Part shown: piece by piece, positions 1-10,578 of the stretch
Layout of the letters: every line of letters begins with the position of its first letter
How positions within the stretch are numbered: the first letter of the stretch is position 1
DNA from: Syntrophorhabdaceae bacterium
GTDB taxonomy: Bacteria > Desulfobacterota > Syntrophorhabdia > Syntrophorhabdales > Syntrophorhabdaceae
Assembly (NCBI GenBank): GCA_963666485.2
Contig: CAXXUO010000001.1
Span: 320,001 to 384,000, forward strand
Direction: 5' to 3'
Length of the DNA: 64,000 nucleotides
Made by a program: the position numbers and the translations under genes
Notes under the pieces: generated by a model
The model's database searches: none
What the model saw: the letters and a program-made list of their open reading frames with translations, nothing else
Told to the model about the DNA's origin: nothing

Positions 1-72
1 CGATCTATGGCACCTTTCCTCGATCATCTGTTCCACCAATTTTTCATCATCTACAACGAGTATGGTTGCCAT
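1..72 (-). CDS. Response regulator receiver-domain protein, N-terminus only (runs off window start)
   Basis: Reverse strand from ATG at 72 reads MATILVVDDEKLVEQMIEERCHRS; ILVVDDE is the classic receiver beta1/acidic pocket. Confidence 0.75.
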   Translation of the reverse strand, partial: MATILVVDDEKLVEQMIEERCHRS

Positions 73-121
73 AGTTTAAAATAAGCAGGCCTTGCAGTGG
101 ATTCAATGGTCGAATGAGTCT

Positions 122-140
122 GGTTAGAAAATGGTTAGAA
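122..140 (+). repeat. GGTTAGAA direct-repeat pair (putative integrase arm-type sites), outside the left att
   Basis: GGTTAGAA at 122-129 and 133-140; same pair at 365/377, 6816/6827, 9751/9762. Confidence 0.65.
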
Positions 141-199
141 TTGGCTTCAACGAGCCAATCGTTGCTTTTTTCCTGCTTTCGTAATCTATCGATATTTAA

Positions 200-255
200 G
201 AGATTTAAATTGGAGGCGGCATCCGGATTTGAACCGGAGAATAACGGTTTTGCAG
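200..255 (-). repeat. att direct repeat (3' half of tRNA-Cys plus 11 bp); distal end of the island
   Basis: GAGATTTAAATTGGAGGCGGC...GGTTTTGCAG identical to 9830-9885; identity stops exactly at the anticodon loop CTGCAAA. Confidence 0.95.
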
Positions 256-364
256 CGAGCCGCCAGACCGCTCAGCAAGGCCAGTTGTCTGAATAATATC
301 ATGTGGATGACTTGGTTTATGACGTGGCTTGTTTGATGCTATTTTGTGCTGGTTTAAGGGGTCT

Positions 365-384
365 GGTTAGAAGGACGGTTAGAA
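365..384 (+). repeat. GGTTAGAA pair (putative arm-type sites)
   Basis: GGTTAGAA at 365-372 and 377-384, ~110 bp inside the left att. Confidence 0.65.
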
Positions 385-410
385 ATGAAAATGAAATAGA
401 TATTCAGGTG

Positions 411-1979
411 TTAATCTAGCAAATCAGAAATATACATTTTTATTTCTTTAAACAAACTTGGTGAATTCATAGCAATTTGTCTGCATAATAGTTGACGAAC
501 ATAATCTTCATTTCCAATATAGCCAAGTTCTTGGCATAAAATATAAAATTCAGAATGTTTCTCTGCGCGCTTGGCTTTTTTAATAGCATTTTTTAAACTG
601 TCAGTACTCACTGCAAATAGATTTGATAAGTCATCTATAATTTCATGACATTGATTCAATATCCATAATTCTGGGTGTATAGAATCTGGGAGTGTTATCA
701 ATCTTTTTTCCACCCATTCTTTTGCTGCCTCTTTCTTTTTTGGATTTTCAACTAAATTTATAAATTGCTTGAAATAATTATCCATTTCATTTCTTTTATC
801 CCCGTCAAGAATACCTAGGCATTCACCCACTTTAAGGTTTTTATATCTCGCCGATAATTGCCTGATTAACGATGATGCCGATCCTATCGGGATAATATTA
901 ACCCGATTACGAATCTCGTGATCAAAAAAAGAATGCACGACATTCATGGCACAGTTATCTTCTACAAATATGTCGAGTTCATTACTATTTTCACCCGCGA
1001 GCTTGCCACCTGCGAAAGATGGTGAAATTCCTGATGTTACGATGGTCGAATCGCCTGCATGTTCGATGAAAAAACGTGCCTCGGGGGGAACATTTCTTAA
1101 AATATTTGTTGAATGAGTCGTGCATATAATTTGTATATGGCGATTTTCGCAAACTTTTTTTAATTCCTGTATGAACTTTGCCTGAGCTTCTTCATGAAGA
1201 CCCAGCTCTATCTCATCGATGACTAGCAATGCTCCGCCAGAACAGGCAAAAATTGTGGAAAAAATCTCAAAGAGAGCATTTTCACCCGCTCCCATATTAA
1301 AACCTGAATATGTAATTCCGTCGTTTATTACCATAGGTAAATGATATTTGCTGTATTCGTTGTACCAGAAATTCTCATAGCTATTACCCAGAATTTTACT
1401 TACTACTGCTTTTACAGATTCTTCCCAACCGCGAGGTGCGGTACGCATGAAGAATTTTTTATAACTGCATGAGACACTTTTTTCCGAGTGTGGCACAACT
1501 CGTTCTATTCCGAAAAAAATCACGTTTTTTCTAACCCGCCTTGAGTATTTATTCCATTTTCCACCTTTAGTCTTATATCTCGCTTGATAGGCAAATCCAA
1601 TACCATCCGGAATTTTCGGAGTTTTCTTCCACTTATTATTTAAAAATAAATACCTAATATAGATACCTTCGGGCGGCACTTCTTCATTCGTTTGAAAGAA
1701 AAAATCTGAAAAAGTATAATATGGTTCTTTTCGAGACGGTAATTTGAATCCTTCAGGAGAATTATGATAAGCACATGCAGCTAAGGCAAGAATTGTTGAT
1801 TTTCCACTACCATTTTTTCCAGCAATGACCGAGATTGGATATTTAAATCTTATTTGGAATGCCTTAAGCCCCCTAATTTGGCCTTCAATTAGTGATATTT
1901 CATGTAGTGTGACTTGCGTATTATCGTATGGAAACCACTTTAAATTCGCCCTATCAAGATCAGAATATCGATATGGCAT
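411..1979 (-). CDS. ABC-ATPase + TOPRIM nuclease (OLD-like ATP-dependent endonuclease), putative defence protein
   Basis: Walker A GKNGSGKS, signature-like MGAGE, Walker B LLVIDE, H-loop TTHS; C-terminal TOPRIM motifs IFVED and ILDGD. Confidence 0.85.
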   Translation of the reverse strand: MPYRYSDLDRANLKWFPYDNTQVTLHEISLIEGQIRGLKAFQIRFKYPISVIAGKNGSGKSTILALAACAYHNSPEGFKLPSRKEPYYTFSDFFFQTNEEVPPEGIYIRYLFLNNKWKKTPKIPDGIGFAYQARYKTKGGKWNKYSRRVRKNVIFFGIERVVPHSEKSVSCSYKKFFMRTAPRGWEESVKAVVSKILGNSYENFWYNEYSKYHLPMVINDGITYSGFNMGAGENALFEIFSTIFACSGGALLVIDEIELGLHEEAQAKFIQELKKVCENRHIQIICTTHSTNILRNVPPEARFFIEHAGDSTIVTSGISPSFAGGKLAGENSNELDIFVEDNCAMNVVHSFFDHEIRNRVNIIPIGSASSLIRQLSARYKNLKVGECLGILDGDKRNEMDNYFKQFINLVENPKKKEAAKEWVEKRLITLPDSIHPELWILNQCHEIIDDLSNLFAVSTDSLKNAIKKAKRAEKHSEFYILCQELGYIGNEDYVRQLLCRQIAMNSPSLFKEIKMYISDLLD

Positions 1980-2003
1980 ACTATTTCCTTAATGTTTTAT
2001 ATT

Positions 2004-3725
2004 TTATTTCCATTGAAATGTTTCGGCTGCCAAGTCCGCAAGATTCTTCTGTCTGGAAGTAACTTCGTCGATACCGAGCTTATCTATCTTGGCAACCTTG
2101 TTAAAAGCCTTCGCCATTGTACTGCCACCAGGCATCGCTGTTACAAGTCCCTTGCATTGGATAAAAGAACTGTTTGCATAGACCTCTTTCTTGCTCATAA
2201 CGCTGGCATCTTTAATTGATCTGTTTAAGGGCTTTTCAATCAGGACAAGATTACCAAGTCTTTCGACATTTTCGGCGTGTTCAGCTTCGTTCATAGAAAG
2301 TATTTTTGCAGCATCAAATTTTCTCGGAATGATATGTTCGACTTCATAATTGGAAAATTCATTGATCGCTTTGTAAGCCCCGCCTGTTGTTTCCCTCAAA
2401 AACCCCTCGATGCGCAGCAACAGGTAGACTAATTTTTTCTTCGAGATATCGTTAATTTTTAAATTTAGCAGCTTGTCGTAAGCCAATTGCCCTAACCTTC
2501 TAACTTCGGGCAAAATAGTTTTCCTGATTAATTCTGACACTTGATCATCCGATTTGCATTGAAGCAAGCCTTGTGTCCAATCACTGAAAGTTTTTTCTAT
2601 GGCGCCAGTATAAGATCGCTGTACGGAATACGAAATTAAAAGAGATTCAACCGCAGCCAGAATGCTATCGTAATTAGCACTTGCGGGACTAATCTGCCTC
2701 AACGATATAAGCAAAGGAAAGAACTGTTTTCCTTTTTCAGATAGCCTTCTGATATTTGCTATTTTTTTACTATCGGTACCATCTGGAGCTTTACCATTAA
2801 TAATATTTCTATAAGCTTCAGCAAAACTTTGAACCCTGGTTATAAAATCGAAAGGCGTCCGAGTTAATTCGGTATTTAGCGGATTTTTTATCCATTCAAA
2901 TACATCGTCTTCTGGTATTTTTTTGCTATAGGCGACCAGAATGTAATATTTTAGAAATCGCTTCTCGCTTTCATTTAATTTATCGAGGGTTTCTTTAAAT
3001 TTATTCCATTCGGACTTTAGTTCATCCCAATTTGATTCATCTTCATTGGCGAAAAGGGCACTTTTAACCAGATCGATCGGGGTTAGCGATTTTCCTTTTG
3101 AATTTAATGTCTCAAACACCATTAATGCCTGTCGCATACTATATGCAATGTAAGGAAGAACTACGACGTTCGATAAAATATAATTAGTAAACTTTTCAAT
3201 TGGTATTTCAGGCGCATCGAAATAACTTTCGACAGCCATGAAAGCGTTTTTCATATTGGAAATTGTATCGTTAAAATCCTCAAATAATTTGACCTTATCG
3301 GGATCCTCGACTATCTCTCTGATCAATGCATCTGCTCGAAGATCACTGAAGATAATCCTGAATTTACTTTGCAGTTTTCCCTCTTCCATTCTTTTATAGG
3401 CGATGAGTTGTCCTAAGAAGCCGGCCATTTCAGTATCGCCTTTTTTTAAAAAATAATTTTTGAGGGCGGCAATGATAATGAAAAGAGTGGTCAATCTTTG
3501 TTGGCCATCGATTATCATAAAATCTTGTCCATCATCAATTAACACAATCGCACCAATAAAATATTTTTGGTTGTCATCTCTTTGATAGCTATCGGCAAAG
3601 TCATTTAGCAACTGCGAAACATTTTCCTCTTCCCATACGTATTCACGCTGAAAATCTGCCACACAAAAGAATTGATTGAATAAATCATGAACCGATATTG
3701 AACGGTCATTTCTGAAATTTTCCAC
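2004..3725 (-). CDS. GmrSD-family (DUF262 + DUF1524/HNH) modification-dependent restriction protein
   Basis: FQREYVW, IIDGQQRLTTL, FETLNSKG (DUF262); EVEHIIP...LGNLVL...N (HNH); GTG start with AAGGGGA RBS. Confidence 0.9.
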   Translation of the reverse strand: MENFRNDRSISVHDLFNQFFCVADFQREYVWEEENVSQLLNDFADSYQRDDNQKYFIGAIVLIDDGQDFMIIDGQQRLTTLFIIIAALKNYFLKKGDTEMAGFLGQLIAYKRMEEGKLQSKFRIIFSDLRADALIREIVEDPDKVKLFEDFNDTISNMKNAFMAVESYFDAPEIPIEKFTNYILSNVVVLPYIAYSMRQALMVFETLNSKGKSLTPIDLVKSALFANEDESNWDELKSEWNKFKETLDKLNESEKRFLKYYILVAYSKKIPEDDVFEWIKNPLNTELTRTPFDFITRVQSFAEAYRNIINGKAPDGTDSKKIANIRRLSEKGKQFFPLLISLRQISPASANYDSILAAVESLLISYSVQRSYTGAIEKTFSDWTQGLLQCKSDDQVSELIRKTILPEVRRLGQLAYDKLLNLKINDISKKKLVYLLLRIEGFLRETTGGAYKAINEFSNYEVEHIIPRKFDAAKILSMNEAEHAENVERLGNLVLIEKPLNRSIKDASVMSKKEVYANSSFIQCKGLVTAMPGGSTMAKAFNKVAKIDKLGIDEVTSRQKNLADLAAETFQWK

Positions 3726-3806
3726 TGGTTATCCCCTTAAGGAAAAATAAATAAATGCTTAAATCATTGAAATTCTCATGATTTAATTAGTTTTATGTTT
3801 AACCAG

Positions 3807-3835
3807 ATATTATTATCCACAATTTAAAATGTCAA
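3807..3835 (-). promoter_or_regulatory. sigma70-type promoter for the GmrSD/ATPase-TOPRIM operon
   Basis: Minus strand TTGACA-N17-TAATAT; spacer contains TTATCCACA (3813-3821 on +). Confidence 0.6.
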
Positions 3836-4338
3836 TAAACAATGAGAAAATTACGGATATAGAGTATTTTAGGCGCAATTTATTTGTTAAAATGGTTTTC
3901 TATGCAGTGTATGACATGTCTTTCATGGGTTATCGCTGGCAAATATTGAAATGTCATATTTAAATACTGACCAGCTTTTCGTCGATTACTAACAGTAAAA
4001 TCTTATTAATTATCAAGACAAATTCATTTTATCCATTCATATAAGAAGGAAAAAAACAGCGATAAGAATTGTTTGCCTCTCCTGTGACCGCAACGTTTTC
4101 CTTCATTGGCAAGCTGCATATTACCAAAAAACCATAATAAAAAATCTATTACGAAAAATCAGACCCATTCAAAATTCCTGCCTGATTGATAAAGAGCAAC
4201 AGTTGGACTTTTTTTACCCTGCGTTTTCCTGGTGATAGCACATTGGGCTTCTCACAAAGATTGTATATGAACACTATTGACTATCGGTACACAAATCTGG
4301 TCGTCGCAGACAAATCTATTCAAGGGGAGGTGGTATTC

Positions 4339-4389
4339 GTGGACCTTATCTTCGCGCTCCTGTTGGCATGGCTGATCGGTAAAAAGTAA
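4339..4389 (+). CDS. 16-aa hydrophobic peptide MDLIFALLLAWLIGKK, candidate type I toxin
   Basis: Strong RBS AAGGGGAGGT (4322-4331) before GTG; single hydrophobic helix with terminal KK; hairpins follow. Confidence 0.45.
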   Translation: MDLIFALLLAWLIGKK

Positions 4390-4625
4390 ACCGATCCACC
4401 ACAGGCAGGCTCGTGCATTCACGAAATGTTACATGCTACGGAACGCACGGGCTTGCCTCTGCCATCGAGAGCGACGAGGTGACGAAAAGTTTTGGTTACT
4501 GGACAGGGATAACGAGGCTTGCTTCAGGTTGCTTCGGGACATAGAAGACAGACATTCTTGTATTTATGCTCACAGGGCGCCGCCTGAGCAAACCTCAGCG
4601 AAAAGGGGACGAACCTCAGCGAACA

Positions 4626-4856
4626 TCACTTCTTCTTTTTAGGAGAAGCCTCTTCCAGCTTCTGAATTCTTTCTTCAAGGCTTTTCAGTGCATCGCTCAC
4701 CGTTGGGGTTTTATCAAAATACTGGTTAAGCGCATCCTCAACCACTGAAGATATTGACATCTCCTTCTCTTCAGCCACCATTTTTAGCTTATCTTTCATG
4801 GCAAGCGTCATGCGAAGCTGTACTACTTCTGTCTTTAGTCTTCGTCTACGAATCAT
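4626..4856 (-). CDS. Ribbon-helix-helix (CopG-like) DNA-binding protein
   Basis: VVQLRMT beta strand, then helix-turn-SISSVVEDAL helix; C-terminal coiled coil; start may be upstream (4892). Confidence 0.7.
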   Translation of the reverse strand: MIRRRRLKTEVVQLRMTLAMKDKLKMVAEEKEMSISSVVEDALNQYFDKTPTVSDALKSLEERIQKLEEASPKKKK

Positions 4857-5104
4857 GGATGCGATTGTATCAGGTTTCGGAAAGCCTTTCAATCAATATC
4901 AATACGTTTGGCAATACATTGTAATGATTGATGTATATACATTTGTATTGACACATGGCAACACTTGTGGTCCAATATCGAACCTGCTTGTCTGGTTCAG
5001 GACGTTCGGTGCAGGTTGGGTCGTCTCGGGAAACACAGGTGATCCATATCATTACTCGGCGCCCCCATGAAGGCAACGCCAATAATAATTTAAAGGAGTT
5101 AGAT

Positions 5105-5374
5105 ATGAAGAACCAACCAAGGATTAAACAAACAGAATTGGCGGGTAGTTTGGAATTTGGACGTTACACAGCAGGAGCCGAACTTACACCAGAGGAATCC
5201 ATACGTGGTTTCTGCTATACATGCATGTTCAATTTCTCATCAAGATTCGATGAATTGAGCCCTGAATGTGCCAATGACGAAGAATGTCCTTTATATCCTT
5301 ATTCTCCGTTCCAAGAGGGGAATATAAAGGTCGACCCGCGCGACAGAAGGGACTACATCATCATCAATCCGTAA
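5105..5374 (+). CDS. Small Cys-rich hypothetical protein (possible Zn-binding)
   Basis: AAGGAG RBS before ATG 5105; IRGFCYTC...C...CPLYPY. Confidence 0.6.
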   Translation: MKNQPRIKQTELAGSLEFGRYTAGAELTPEESIRGFCYTCMFNFSSRFDELSPECANDEECPLYPYSPFQEGNIKVDPRDRRDYIIINP

Positions 5375-5442
5375 AACGTGAATAGCAAGCAGAAGGTCTT
5401 CCAATAAGGCCTTCTGCGCACTATCCAAAGGAGGGTATTGCT

Positions 5443-6309
5443 ATGACTATACCGCGGTATAGACGAAGAACTGTTTCCGCACGGGATCTTCAAATTAAAG
5501 TTGTGAAAAATATTAATCTGCTCGACAGGCCATTATTCATCCCATCCAGAACACGGGTAGAGCAGGACGTGTATAACGATCAGAACGGATATGAGATATC
5601 ATGTCCGACCGGTCTTCCGGTGTCCAAAGATATCGATCTTCTGAATCTATTATTGCATAAAACACAGGCTACGCGGGGGCTGCTTACAGTCGAGTTTGAT
5701 TCAATGTCGGATTTACTCCAGGAACTGGGGTATAGCGTCGGCGAAAAAAATTATGCAGCCGTCCGGCAATCGTTGGAATGCTGGGGACAGACCCAAATTT
5801 GTTTTCAACAGGAATCGCTGTATATCGGCAGGGGCCGGTATGGCGGATTACCGAGGACGCACATATTGCAGGTCAGCCACCCTCATAATGGGCTTCGCAT
5901 TGAATTTAACAGACATTTTCTGGATCTCAACAATTCGTCGAGTTATGTGATGAAATTCCCGCTGAAGTTAATGCCGAAGTTTACACCCTTCTCTAAGAGA
6001 CTATTCGAGATTCTTCGGAAGAATGAGAAGAACTTCGAGCAGGAATTACAATGGAAAATTTCATTAGATAAACTTCGTCGAAAAATGCCCATAATAAATG
6101 GCTTATCCAATGCCAAATTTGTATATCAGGTTAAAGATTCCTGCAATGAGATCAACGAGAAAATGCACCGTTACGGGATGCGGCACGGCTATGCAGTCGA
6201 ACGAGGCGGCCGAAGATACCAAATATTCATCTTCAATAAAGGATTGATGGAGCGTCGTACTGCGCGGGATACAATTCGTACTGAAGGGCTATTATTTCGT
6301 ACTTCATGA
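5443..6309 (+). CDS. Replication initiator protein (Rep_3/RepA-like winged helix)
   Basis: AAGGAGG RBS; SKRLFEILR...WKISLDKLRRKM pattern typical of iteron-binding initiators; phased iterons at its 3' end. Confidence 0.7.
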   Translation: MTIPRYRRRTVSARDLQIKVVKNINLLDRPLFIPSRTRVEQDVYNDQNGYEISCPTGLPVSKDIDLLNLLLHKTQATRGLLTVEFDSMSDLLQELGYSVGEKNYAAVRQSLECWGQTQICFQQESLYIGRGRYGGLPRTHILQVSHPHNGLRIEFNRHFLDLNNSSSYVMKFPLKLMPKFTPFSKRLFEILRKNEKNFEQELQWKISLDKLRRKMPIINGLSNAKFVYQVKDSCNEINEKMHRYGMRHGYAVERGGRRYQIFIFNKGLMERRTARDTIRTEGLLFRTS

Positions 6310-6460
6310 CATGACGTTCGTACTTGGCGGGATGATTTCTCGTACTTTACGGGATAGAAAATGCTCTAAACCATTGGGGGCCAAGGGTATCTGGCCCCTA
6401 GATATATATTTAGATACTATATGTACATCGATATATTCTTTTGAAACTAGGTTTTTGATT
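6255..6460 (+). other. Iteron-type replication origin: five iterons plus AT-rich tract
   Basis: TCGTACT at 6255, 6276, 6297, 6318, 6340 (period 21,21,21,22), three followed by CGGGAT; AT-rich ~6399-6460. Confidence 0.75.
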
Positions 6461-6815
6461 CCCGTTCTCCGTACGTTCGCGTTGCTCACTTGCCACTCCG
6501 AACGGGGGGGTTTCTAAAAGAAGACCCCAAAAGCATCTTGTACTGTTCTGGTGCGCACCTTAAGAGGCTCTTTCCCTGACGAATCTAATGCTCTTGTACG
6601 TGGGATTTTACGTTTTCATATAAAACGATCGCCAGAACGCAAGTGCCGACGTCTGAGAAGCATCCTGCAAAGAACTTGAATATCATTTTGACGCAGTATT
6701 CCCGATCCGAGTACAGCGGCACGCTTAATGACAGTTGGCGTTGTGCACGCCGACCATACTCCTTGTCATAAGGTCGACATACTGCACAGACAGTCACCAA
6801 AATTAATGGCCGGCC

Positions 6816-6834
6816 GGTTAGAAAGCGGTTAGAA
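6816..6834 (+). repeat. GGTTAGAA pair upstream of the integrase
   Basis: GGTTAGAA at 6816-6823 and 6827-6834. Confidence 0.6.
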
Positions 6835-6910
6835 GACGCTTGTGAACGCTTTATAAACGCGCGGTTCCGATGGGACAGCAGGTTACCTTAACCGTTATTC
6901 AAGATTGTTC

Positions 6911-6938
6911 TTGAACCAATCCCGAGGTCTCCTATAAT
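6911..6938 (+). promoter_or_regulatory. Putative integrase promoter
   Basis: TTGAAC-N16-TATAAT; RBS AAGGAGGT at 6986-6993. Confidence 0.5.
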
Positions 6939-6998
6939 GAAGTCAATTAAATATAAACGCTTGATAGAAGCCAACATACAGCAAAAAGGAGGTACACC

Positions 6999-8090
6999 AT
7001 GCAGGGAAGTATCGTAAAGAAAGGATCAGTTTATTATGCAGTTATCGCCTTAAGTCACATGAAGCGAAAATGGTACAAGGGAGGGGATACTCGAAAAGCA
7101 GCACAGAAGGTCTTACGTGAGAAGCTTGGAGAACTTGACGCAGGGACGTACAAGGAGATACCCAAGGCTACGTTCAAGGAGTTCATCGATCACTGGTTAA
7201 CCACATATTGCGAAAGCAACCTCAAGCCCTCAACATTAAAAGGCTATAAAAGCATCTTAACAGTCAATATGGTTGGCTTTCACGAACGTAAGTTAATCGA
7301 CGTTACGACAGGCCAACTGGCGGCACATGTATCGAATAGACTTAAAGGTGGGGCATCTGCAATGACGATGAACCACGAGGTGGCTCTCATAAAGCTTGTC
7401 TTTAAGCATGCGAGGCGGTGGGGATACGTCAAGATCAGTCCCGCTGAAGACCTCGACAGACCAAAGGCAACATCAAAAGAGATCGAGGTCCTCAGCCCTG
7501 ACGAGTTCAAACTGTTCATTGAGAAGTTACATCCCCATTTCCGAACCGCGTTTACGACAGCTTTTCTTTGCGGTCTGAGGGCTGGCGAGCTGTGGGCACT
7601 GCAATGGGGAGATATTGACTGGGTATCGAACAGGCTGTATGTACGGCGATCTGTTTGGAAAGGTCGATTTCAGACGCCGAAGACGAAGAAGAGTATACGC
7701 AAGATCGATTTACCGCAACAGCTAGTTCAAGAATTGAAGGTTTGGAAGCTTAAATGCCCTGTCAGTGAGCATGATCTTGTATTTCCTGGGCTTGAAGGTG
7801 GCATTGCGAACCATGTGAATATCGCTAACAGGCACTTCTACCCTGCCCTGCGAAGAGCGGGATTAAGGCACGTGTCATTTCACAGCTTACGTCATAGTAA
7901 TGCCAGTTTAAGGATACAGGCAGGGCAAAACATCAAATACGTCAGCGACCAACTGGGTCATTCGACGATTAAGATCACCTTGGATGTGTACGGTCACCTG
8001 TTCGATGACGTAAACTTCACAAGGCAACAAGTTGAGATGCTGGATGCTTGTTTTAATACCAAGAATAAAGAATCTATTACCAATATTTAA
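6999..8090 (+). CDS. int: Tyrosine recombinase / phage-type integrase
   Basis: N-terminal arm-binding-like domain; GLRAGEL (R), TPKT (K), HSLRH, LGHS, catalytic Y in DVYGH. Confidence 0.95.
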   Translation: MQGSIVKKGSVYYAVIALSHMKRKWYKGGDTRKAAQKVLREKLGELDAGTYKEIPKATFKEFIDHWLTTYCESNLKPSTLKGYKSILTVNMVGFHERKLIDVTTGQLAAHVSNRLKGGASAMTMNHEVALIKLVFKHARRWGYVKISPAEDLDRPKATSKEIEVLSPDEFKLFIEKLHPHFRTAFTTAFLCGLRAGELWALQWGDIDWVSNRLYVRRSVWKGRFQTPKTKKSIRKIDLPQQLVQELKVWKLKCPVSEHDLVFPGLEGGIANHVNIANRHFYPALRRAGLRHVSFHSLRHSNASLRIQAGQNIKYVSDQLGHSTIKITLDVYGHLFDDVNFTRQQVEMLDACFNTKNKESITNI

Positions 8091-8131
8091 TAATAGTTTC
8101 CAATTTTGTTTTTATTTATTACAATTTCAAT

Positions 8132-8797
8132 ATGAATAATACAATATATGATCAAATCAATAAAAACATATCTAATGTTATACAAGGCATACCGTCTGCC
8201 CACGTTAGCGATTACGATTACTTAATAGAAAACTTAAACAATTCAGCCAACGCTGGTTATCAGAGCCGGTACAAAACATACTGGAGACTGCATGGAGCTG
8301 GTCTATCACAAGATTATTGCGATATTTATTTTCAGTATTTACAGAATGCCGTGCTAAATCCCTTGCCACTCAAAACCCTTGTAACCGAACTTTACCAAGT
8401 ACCCTGCTCTCCAAATAGAAAAGCGATTCAATTTTCTTTTTGTACCAAACTTTGTCATATGATAGATCGCAAATTGCCAATTTACGATTCAAAAATAGCT
8501 GAATTCTATAATTTTAAGCGGCCTGATTCGCAAATATCTGCCGAAAGACGAATCAATATGTACATCAGATTCTACGAATTTCTGAAGGCTGAATATCAGA
8601 AAGTGCTTGATAGTAAAATACTTGATGAATCAATCAAATCTTTTAGGGTTTCTTTTCAGCCCAAGAATTTTACTGATATAAAAATCATAGATTCGTTGAT
8701 CTGGGGTTCAGCCCCAAAAAAAGTGAAAGAACCCTCACCCCGAGAACAAAATATTCAGAGATTATTGAAAATGCTTGCATCCGAAGAGGAGCATTGA
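8132..8797 (+). CDS. Hypothetical protein, possible alpha-helical (HhH-GPD-like) DNA glycosylase fold
   Basis: SFCTKLCH...LPIYDS and terminal IIDSLIW resemble the K...P-x-x-D...D-x-x-x-W pattern of helical glycosylase-like families; function not verified. Confidence 0.45.
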   Translation: MNNTIYDQINKNISNVIQGIPSAHVSDYDYLIENLNNSANAGYQSRYKTYWRLHGAGLSQDYCDIYFQYLQNAVLNPLPLKTLVTELYQVPCSPNRKAIQFSFCTKLCHMIDRKLPIYDSKIAEFYNFKRPDSQISAERRINMYIRFYEFLKAEYQKVLDSKILDESIKSFRVSFQPKNFTDIKIIDSLIWGSAPKKVKEPSPREQNIQRLLKMLASEEEH

Positions 8798-8821
8798 CAA
8801 CAGAAATGAAAAAATCGAGCC

Positions 8822-9739
8822 ATGATTGAAACACGAACAGTATTTGTTCTGGGTGCTGGTGCAAGTATCCCATACGGTTACCCTTCGGGCGCTGGGCTGA
8901 AAGACCGTATATGTTCGGAATTTATACGTGACATCGAAAAATTTCACGATAGAGATCCCGAAGCACGTAATTCAATGAAGCGGTTCTTCGATAAACGAGC
9001 TGAGTTTGTTGATAGTTTCAAAAGATCGCGGGTGACATCAATTGATAGATGGCTTTTATCGAACACAGATTGTAGTGAAATAGGCAAATTAGCAATTGCC
9101 AATTCGATTATCAGATGCGAAAGTCCTGATATGTTATTCCCGAGTAGAGATATTGACTGGTTCACAGTTCTTTTTAATGAGATCATAAAAGAAGCAGAAA
9201 CCCCCGAACAATGCAGCCTAACGAAAATAGGGTTTATCACATTCAATTACGATAGATTATTGGAACATTTATTTTATGAAAGTTTTACACATACCTATAG
9301 AAATATCGAAAAAGAAAAAATCGATGCAGCTTTAAAAGAACTCCAAATTTATCATATTTATGGTGCAATTGAGAATCCCCCGTGGCAAAAAGGAATTTCA
9401 TTCAATTACGGAAGCCAATACAAATTTGATTTTATAAATCCTGCAAAGGATCGTATTCGGGTAATTGGTGAAAGAATTGATTCTTCTTTAGGAAATATTC
9501 ACGACTTATTATCAAAAGCAGATAGAATATTTTTTCTCGGATTTGGTTTTGACCCTCAGAATCTTAAAATGTTGAGGGCATCGGATATTTTTCCTATGGT
9601 ATCTGAAATTTATGGCACTGCATACACGTTTTATGACAATGAAATAGCAGATGTACTTAAAAGGACGAATCATAACGCAAAGATTGAACCATGTGAAAGC
9701 GTTGAACTTCTGCGCAAATATTTTATCGGACGAAGTTAA
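8822..9739 (+). CDS. SIR2-like domain protein (putative NADase defence effector)
   Basis: VLGAGAS..YGYP, ITFNYD, IYHIYG, FLGFGF motifs. Confidence 0.8.
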   Translation: MIETRTVFVLGAGASIPYGYPSGAGLKDRICSEFIRDIEKFHDRDPEARNSMKRFFDKRAEFVDSFKRSRVTSIDRWLLSNTDCSEIGKLAIANSIIRCESPDMLFPSRDIDWFTVLFNEIIKEAETPEQCSLTKIGFITFNYDRLLEHLFYESFTHTYRNIEKEKIDAALKELQIYHIYGAIENPPWQKGISFNYGSQYKFDFINPAKDRIRVIGERIDSSLGNIHDLLSKADRIFFLGFGFDPQNLKMLRASDIFPMVSEIYGTAYTFYDNEIADVLKRTNHNAKIEPCESVELLRKYFIGRS

Positions 9740-9750
9740 TATTATCTTGT

Positions 9751-9769
9751 GGTTAGAAATTGGTTAGAA
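9751..9769 (+). repeat. GGTTAGAA pair (putative arm-type sites)
   Basis: GGTTAGAA at 9751-9758 and 9762-9769, 79 bp before the att repeat start. Confidence 0.65.
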
Positions 9770-9840
9770 AATATCCCAAATAGACAAACCAATCCCCATC
9801 CTTTGTTATCCTATCCTATCGATTGTATTGAGATTTAAAT

Positions 9841-9915
9841 TGGAGGCGGCATCCGGATTTGAACCGGAGAATAACGGTTTTGCAGACCGTCGCCTTACCA
9901 CTTGGCTATGCCGCC
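9841..9915 (-). tRNA. tRNA-Cys (GCA), intact; integration target
   Basis: GGCGGCATAGCCAAGTGGTAAGGCGACGGTCTGCAAAACCGTTATTCTCCGGTTCAAATCCGGATGCCGCCTCCA folds as a cloverleaf with encoded CCA. Confidence 0.97.
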
Positions 9916-10039
9916 GCTTTGAGGCGGAGTTAAAAATTTTAAGCGGGTCCTTGGACCCGCGTGATTTCGTATGGAGCGGGAGTCCTCACCCGCTACATTC
10001 CTTATTATAACAAGCGAGCTATGCTCGCCGATTAATCTA

Positions 10040-10114
<75 letters not shown>

Positions 10115-10218
10115 GCGTGTTGTTTTTTATAATATAAACCTGTCCCGCATGTCAAGACGGAAAAGGGACACGGCGGAATCCGGCCTGCGTACATTTCGGC
10201 TACAGCGCAATTCGGAAG

Positions 10219-10578
10219 CTAGACCTTTGCGTAGTCGGCCATTCCCTGGAAATCGATGAGCACGACGGGTTCATTGCCCACTACCCAGGCGTCGTGGCCG
10301 ACCGGGAGCATCGAAACATCGCCCGGTTTACCTTCGAGCCGGGTACCGTCGTCCATAACGATCATGATTGTCCCCGAAACGTGGTATTGAAAGTGGGGCG
10401 CCTCGCACGATTTAGTCTTCGCTATTGGCTTAACCGATTCAGACCACTTCCAGCCCGGCTCGAGGGTCGTCCTGCCTATCACCCTTCCGCCGATGTTGAT
10501 GAGCTCCAGTTTGCCTTTGGGAAATGTACGCACCTCATCCGGTTCCTGAAAAGTTTTTTTCTCGGCTTTATCGGGCAT
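10219..10578 (-). CDS. Cupin domain protein
   Basis: AGGAGG RBS before MPDK; PGWKWS, CEAPH, GHDAWVVG cupin motifs. Confidence 0.85.
   Translation of the reverse strand: MPDKAEKKTFQEPDEVRTFPKGKLELINIGGRVIGRTTLEPGWKWSESVKPIAKTKSCEAPHFQYHVSGTIMIVMDDGTRLEGKPGDVSMLPVGHDAWVVGNEPVVLIDFQGMADYAKV

Follow-up and report, generated by a model that had tools for sequence, protein, structure and literature searches.

A stretch of 64,000 nucleotides from Syntrophorhabdaceae bacterium (contig CAXXUO010000001.1, positions 320,001 to 384,000; hereafter the window) carries, directly behind an integrase gene, two small genes, referred to as gene 1 and gene 2 (Table 1), which encode a putative DNA glycosylase of the HhH superfamily and a SIR2-like protein. 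Both are real genes and belong to known kinds of protein, and they do not look like a two-component system; they are probably two independent single-gene defences that adjoin each other in a variable cargo slot of a small element integrated at a tRNA-Cys gene. As no other case of their relatives occurring together was found, the genes are read as separate anti-virus passengers; a defence setting is likely for both.

An earlier note, made from the letters of this DNA, had suggested a two-component system in which the recognition of modified bases would be coupled to the depletion of NAD. Its description of the arrangement was borne out by two open reading frames (ORFs) on the + strand, with 24 bp between them and 41 bp between the integrase stop (8090) and the first. 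A single contig of 9,633 nt covers positions 226-9858 with zero letter differences in three of four sequencing runs, the fourth being without reads; this agreement is a check of the assembly only, because the runs are of one sample, possibly the source. Scans for promoters (9 vs 9.7) and terminators (3 vs 3.5) remained at chance level, and therefore a possible leaderless start of gene 1 is not claimed.

Linkage of the two gene families

The partner gene was found at none of 140 loci of the gene-1 family and at none of 50 loci of the gene-2 (SIR2) family; the homologues are thus unlinked, and the proposed two-component system is not supported. The former loci comprise 133, representing 107 clusters at 90% and including 78 with at least 1 kb downstream, and seven further ones. 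No match to the SIR2 family profile (A2) was obtained at the 133 loci, the best E-value with a broader SIR2 profile being 0.28, whereas the window itself scored 5e-108. The seven further loci contained no SIR2 partner. The Pfam search of 129 co-oriented neighbours of gene-1 homologues (65 of 78 downstream and 64 of 80 upstream, mostly duplicates having been dropped) revealed no SIR2; 46 of these neighbours had a Pfam match, among them 20 restriction, nuclease or toxin-antitoxin types and four transposases, as counted by family name with no background control. At one gene-1 locus (L052) a frameshifted copy of gene 1 is preceded, at a distance of 600 bp, by a SIR2_2 gene of 439 amino acids (aa) that could not be aligned with gene 2 (best E 1.0). 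The SIR2_2 gene was caught by a motif scan and overlooked by both SIR2 profiles; therefore, distant SIR2 genes more than one gene away could be missed.

The SIR2 loci (35 and 15, with 46 distinct genes) gave no gene-1 match, upstream room being present in 31 of the first 33 distinct genes. The Pfam search of 106 neighbours at these loci detected one TIR_2 protein but neither a glycosylase nor HerA, pAgo or HAM1, and no neighbour family recurred beyond integrases and duplicates. The SIR2 family was present in seven and the gene-1 family in four of 401 genomes sampled from the phylum, and in eight and two, respectively, of 96 genomes sampled from the order; in both samples the two families occurred together only in the source genome. 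Among 50 genomes with gene 1 (taken from 53 genome loci, L003, L051 and L053 being left out), one contained the SIR2 family, ~750 kb apart on the same contig. The search for fusions and long forms yielded one gene-1 protein of 493 aa, without SIR2, which is weak evidence. The main gap of the survey is that the SIR2 loci read share only 23-36% identity with gene 2 in long matches, the 40-46% relatives of gene 2 having no genomic context in it; the gene-1 loci reach up to 55%. A described glycosylase-SIR2 pair was not found in the literature searched, most subscription papers being outside its reach.

Fold and conserved residues of gene 1

The fold predicted for gene 1 by AlphaFold2 (AF2; pLDDT 95.1) is HhH-like and glycosylase-like according to the fold searches with this model, which supports an assignment that was tentative in the earlier note. 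The closest solved folds are those of the Ogg2 and MagIII repair enzymes; Foldseek with the model against PDB and BFVD gave nothing at E 0.001 or better, and the PDB sequence search with gene 1, A1, A3 and A2 gave no significant match. Gene 1 itself had no Pfam, PADLOC or NCBIfam match. A weak match to Pfam DUF6308 (PF19827; best E 2.6e-5) was present in 50 of 136 family members, for which NCBIfam named no family and gave only single weak matches; no paper naming DUF6308 was found in the literature search. An Atlas lead, HI_0787_N (score 0.94), had a recognition value below threshold.

The K...PIYD...D..IW pattern pointed out previously is present (K106, PIYD 116-119, D187, IW 190-191) and is conserved among 212 relatives, a set composed of proteins of 150-240 aa only, in which K106 is kept in 212, P116 and D119 in 211 each, D187 in 208 and W191 in 205. 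The motifs of gene 1, as well as those of gene 2 described below, are beyond chance because they are kept in nearly all relatives. Residues ~197-221 constitute a non-conserved tail, and a tail of at least 28 residues was found in 4 of the 212 relatives. The family includes 1,806 clusters at 50% identity (E up to 0.001) and is seen in Nitrospirota, Acidobacteriota, deltaproteobacteria, Planctomycetota, Patescibacteria and others, and no gene-1 match was detected in the plasmids searched.

In three viral contigs (L185-L187) gene-1 homologues occur as lone genes of lower GC among phage genes. Other homologues (L085:5644-7047, L016:5605-6600, P0206, P0032 and P0006) have extra parts, which are either a hydrophobic segment and a Cys-rich stretch at the N terminus or an HTH_73 domain at the C terminus. 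One open frame of 435 aa (L086:373-1677) contains a partial HAM1-family domain and a full gene-1 homologue and is possibly an insertion into a HAM1 gene; this apparent fusion, which would echo the Kongming system (see below), was set aside because it is a single case and its HAM1 part is cut short.

Gene 1 could also be regarded as a mobile DNA-repair glycosylase, acting on 8-oxoguanine or alkylated purines and having no part in defence, as its nearest solved folds are those of repair enzymes. This is improbable in view of the patchy spread of the family (4/401 and 2/96 genomes), its mobile setting of low GC, the restriction-type neighbours and the identity to Ogg2 of ~10%. Moreover, the Lys-Asp spacing of 13 is near that of Dag1 (14), a defence-associated glycosylase discussed below, and differs from the ~18 residues of Ogg2.

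The SIR2-like protein encoded by gene 2

Judging from its sequence, gene 2 is a member of the SIR2-like superfamily. It passes the cut-off of Pfam SIR2_2 (PF13289) narrowly (24.9 bits, cut-off 24.5) and reaches that of no other family; the PADLOC SIR2 model PDLC04087 is matched by 97 of 100 family members, and SIR2_2 was found on 10-18% of the members of its Atlas neighbour clusters. The PDB sequence search with the family gave no match. The motifs GAGAS 11-15, TFNYD 140-144, HIYG 178-181 and FLGFG 238-242 were recognized, with N142 and D144 conserved in 100 of 100 family members and H178 in 99. An NADase activity is quite likely. The earlier note had described SIR2 motifs with no obvious sensor domain and the absence of the known partners ThsB, HerA and short pAgo, and both statements hold: no separate sensor, SLOG or APAZ domain was detected in gene 2, the family profile of 315 positions standing against 305 aa overall, and no match to the ThsB/TIR, HerA, pAgo and HAM1 families was found among the eight element proteins scanned.

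The family includes 2,307 clusters at 90%, and 14 distant SIR2 matches were obtained on plasmids of Agrobacterium and Rhizobium. In one of 35 loci, on a viral contig (L149:5001-6431), the gene for a 157-aa TIR_2 protein lies 6 bp behind that for a member of the short SIR2 family, which is a Thoeris-like layout. At another locus (L163:466-2160) a short SIR2 gene is flanked by an N6 methylase gene and an Nmad3 (nucleotide-modification-associated) gene.

The host element

The presence at both ends of a 56-bp repeat containing the 3' part of tRNA-Cys showed that the two genes ride a 9.6-kb integrated element (Table 1). The GC content is 0.34-0.48 across positions 1-10,000 of the window vs ~0.55 beyond; the values for genes 1 and 2 are 0.356 and 0.361, and other cargo is alike (0.357 and 0.375). 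The element encodes a tyrosine integrase, an RHH protein, two unnamed ORFs, a GmrSD-type nuclease, the presence of which on the same island had been correctly noted before, a HEC-04 ATPase and genes 1 and 2.

Table 1. Positions of genes 1 and 2 and of the features of the element in the window
Feature	Position	Strand	Basis or remarks
Gene 1	8132..8797	+	221-aa Dag1-like HhH-superfamily DNA glycosylase (putative); candidate active site K106, D119, D187, W191
Gene 2	8822..9739	+	305-aa stand-alone SIR2-like protein, putative NAD+ hydrolase; GAGAS, N142, H178
Tyrosine integrase of the element	6999..8090	+	Pfam Phage_integrase E 8e-21; 68% identical relative likewise at tRNA-Cys
Left attachment repeat, 56 bp	200..255		100% identical to the right repeat
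Right attachment repeat, 56 bp	9830..9885		Overlaps 3' part of tRNA-Cys; 100% identical to window 200-255
tRNA-Cys(GCA), integration target	9841..9915	-	ARAGORN
Paired 8-mer GGTTAGAA, probable integrase arm-type sites	9751..9769	+	Right edge of ~1.7-kb cargo block
GmrSD-type modification-dependent nuclease, separate cargo	2004..3725	-	Pfam GmrSD_N E 2e-33, GmrSD_C E 3e-17; PADLOC HEC-06 E 3e-61
ABC/AAA ATPase-fused candidate defence protein, separate cargo	411..1979	-	Pfam AAA_15/AAA_21; PADLOC HEC-04 E 9e-50, ATPase-Toprim E 5e-27

The related integrase belongs to a genome of the same family (locus L189). The DNA likeness to this relative ends at window position 8044, after which the relative continues directly with the GGTTAGAA repeat and the attachment (att) site, whereas in the window ~1.7 kb with both genes is inserted before the same repeat at 9751. 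Therefore, genes 1 and 2 are cargo in a slot that can be empty. No close relative of the integrase was found in viral contigs, and none of the element proteins was seen at the same tRNAs in nine genus-relative loci, in which 1-1.5 kb was readable and one of which was without tRNA-Cys.

Nine of the 21 genome copies of the GGTTAGAA 8-mer fall in window positions 1-10300, with pairs at 122/133, 365/377, 6816/6827 and 9751/9762. One pair lies upstream of the integrase, in the relative L189 too, and may serve autoregulation through arm-type sites. A third copy of the tRNA-Cys att repeat is located at G000:C1:318375-318426, 1.8 kb left of the element and ~1.6 kb before the window start. This copy (and window 118-253) resembles both att flanks at a level of 80% in 133-138 bp, short integrase-like DNA pieces lie between it and the element, and the region probably represents what is left of a related element that was there earlier in tandem. 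The word depth of the element contig (226-9858) was ~1.4 to 2 times that of the right-hand chromosome contig in three runs of one sample (16.5/8.08, 6.39/3.6 and 13.8/9.81), a ratio that is no measure of copy number. Two ORFs in the element core, at 5443-6309 (288 aa) and 4955-5374 (139 aa), had no Pfam, PADLOC or NCBIfam match; the former presumably resembles a replication initiator. The GmrSD and ATPase genes (window 411-3725) are co-oriented, with 24 bp between them.

Proposed mode of action and alternatives

The following mechanism, every catalytic step of which we infer, is proposed for the two genes as independent defences. Gene 1 would flip a non-canonical base of incoming phage DNA into its pocket, as Dag1 does, W191 would stack on the flipped base, and K106 with D187 would cut the glycosidic bond and probably the backbone too, so that gene 1 alone would destroy modified phage DNA. 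The most likely target base is a 7-deazaguanine derivative, with an even chance, other modified bases being possible. Gene 2 would act by itself as a SIR2 NAD+ hydrolase (N142, H178) and would stay inactive until triggered directly by a phage product and not by gene 1; its hydrolysis of NAD+ would result in abortive infection. The genes may share a transcript and would give layered protection together with the GmrSD nuclease and the ATPase, with no mutual dependence.

The linkage data exclude an obligate pair and leave a looser coupling, facultative or young, in which each gene would work alone in most genomes and the SIR2 protein would respond to products of DNA-attacking defences (an excised base, abasic or broken DNA), so that its neighbour would boost it here. 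SIR2 loci sometimes adjoin modification or restriction genes (N6 methylase and Nmad3 at L163, RAMA/GIY-YIG at L164, methylase and TIR at L149), and a different SIR2_2 gene accompanies the gene-1 copy of L052. However, such neighbours were seen once each, as chance gives in defence hotspots, and the failure of the L052 gene to align with gene 2 likewise leaves this coupling very improbable. It is tempting to speculate that base excision on modified phage DNA releases a product (free modified base or abasic DNA) that activates the short partner-less SIR2 proteins, so that any nearby glycosylase could serve as their sensor, and that this island is a young instance of glycosylase-to-NADase signalling, but this is a long shot. 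It is likelier, with the chances evenly balanced, that the large family of short SIR2 proteins provides defence by itself upon some trigger.

Less probable still is an obligate two-component system, in which gene 1 would sense or excise modified bases and activate the SIR2 NADase by binding or via the released base or abasic DNA. The spacing and orientation of the pair in one 1.7-kb block of equal GC, the rare C-terminal helix retained by gene 1 and the occasional occurrence of Kongming KomBC modules with a uracil-DNA glycosylase are consistent with it, but there was no second case in the 140 and 50 loci or in the 401, 96 and 50 whole genomes, the sole long form found was without SIR2, and relatives matching into the gene 1 tail (L067, L085) had no SIR2 nearby. 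Moreover, the Kongming partners are tightly linked and need HAM1, which is absent here. A toxin-antitoxin pair stabilizing the element, with SIR2 as a constitutive toxin neutralized by gene 1, would suit a small gene upstream of a toxin-like enzyme and adjoining an integrase but is scarcely credible, since dozens of loci carry an intact member of the SIR2 family in the absence of gene 1, and no upstream partner is shared by the family.

As a pair, the genes represent an ordinary stacking of defence cargo, each being of modest value by itself. Gene 1 represents a family without a name, in which the residue pattern of Dag1 is found in lineages remote from Vibrio (anaerobic and soil ones); the family could be used as a ready test of the reach of glycosylase defence and is a possible reagent for modified bases. 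Gene 2 represents a large family of short partner-less SIR2 proteins and raises the question of how these are kept off and switched on.

Comparison with known systems

Gene 2 shares the catalytic Asn and His and the GAGxS loop with the defence SIR2 NADases ThsA, DSR2, Sir2-HerA and SIR2-pAgo, and its N142/H178 spacing resembles that of N133/H171 of DSR2, the mutants of which lose NAD+ cleavage (PMC11087589). Unlike these proteins, it has 305 aa and no partner gene, and only short stretches match the PADLOC SIR2 models. The large C-terminal sensor behind the SIR2 domain of DSR1/DSR2 is lacking, as are the linked partner genes of Thoeris (ThsB TIR), Sir2-HerA (HerA), SIR2-pAgo (short pAgo) and Kongming (HAM1), and gene 2 is placed outside all of these systems because a partner or sensor is lacking. 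Kongming, in which base modification is tied to SIR2 NAD+ depletion, the HAM1 sensor (KomB) is required and tightly linked to SIR2, and uracil-DNA glycosylase is among the variable partners (Zeng et al., bioRxiv 10.1101/2024.12.20.629578), comes closest, among published systems, to the idea of the earlier note; here neither HAM1 nor a conserved linkage was found. A weak likeness of gene 2 to AbiH (PF14253; E 0.067, Atlas 0.91), a single-gene abortive infection protein, is below the cut-off (13.7 vs 30.9 bits); a review preprint leaves AbiH unclassified and includes SIR2 among the effectors of multi-part systems (10.1101/2024.10.26.620412).

The Ogg2-type 8-oxoguanine glycosylases (Tm1821 3n0u, MjOgg 3knt/3fhf and SsOgg 3fhg) are 9-15% identical to gene 1, with no sequence match, and have a housekeeping repair role, whereas gene 1 is patchy mobile cargo. 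A closer likeness exists to Dag1 and the other defence-associated glycosylases (Dags), which were found in Vibrio integrons and tested and form a stand-alone class that needs no effector (Getz et al., bioRxiv 10.1101/2025.10.29.685425); that gene 1 matches this class also argues against the two-component system. Gene 1 and Dag1 have in common a small single-domain HhH-superfamily fold near the Ogg types and, as compared by residue pattern only, a Lys, an Asp 13-14 residues on and then Asp-x3-Trp, the distance between the two Asp being 68 in the gene-1 family vs 52 in Dag1. D119, the PIYD Asp proposed earlier for a catalytic mutant, is indeed conserved but is the second-best choice by analogy, as it corresponds to D132 of Dag1, which is only partly needed (bioRxiv 10.1101/2025.10.29.685425), whereas K106, D187 and W191 match essential residues. 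Dags belong to Vibrio integrons and the gene-1 family to phyla such as Nitrospirota, Acidobacteriota and Planctomycetota, where it is known from sequence; both are stand-alone, patchy, AT-rich and near mobile or defence genes. The fold, residue pattern and setting together make gene 1 a candidate member of the Dag class, and gene 1 would work like Dag1.
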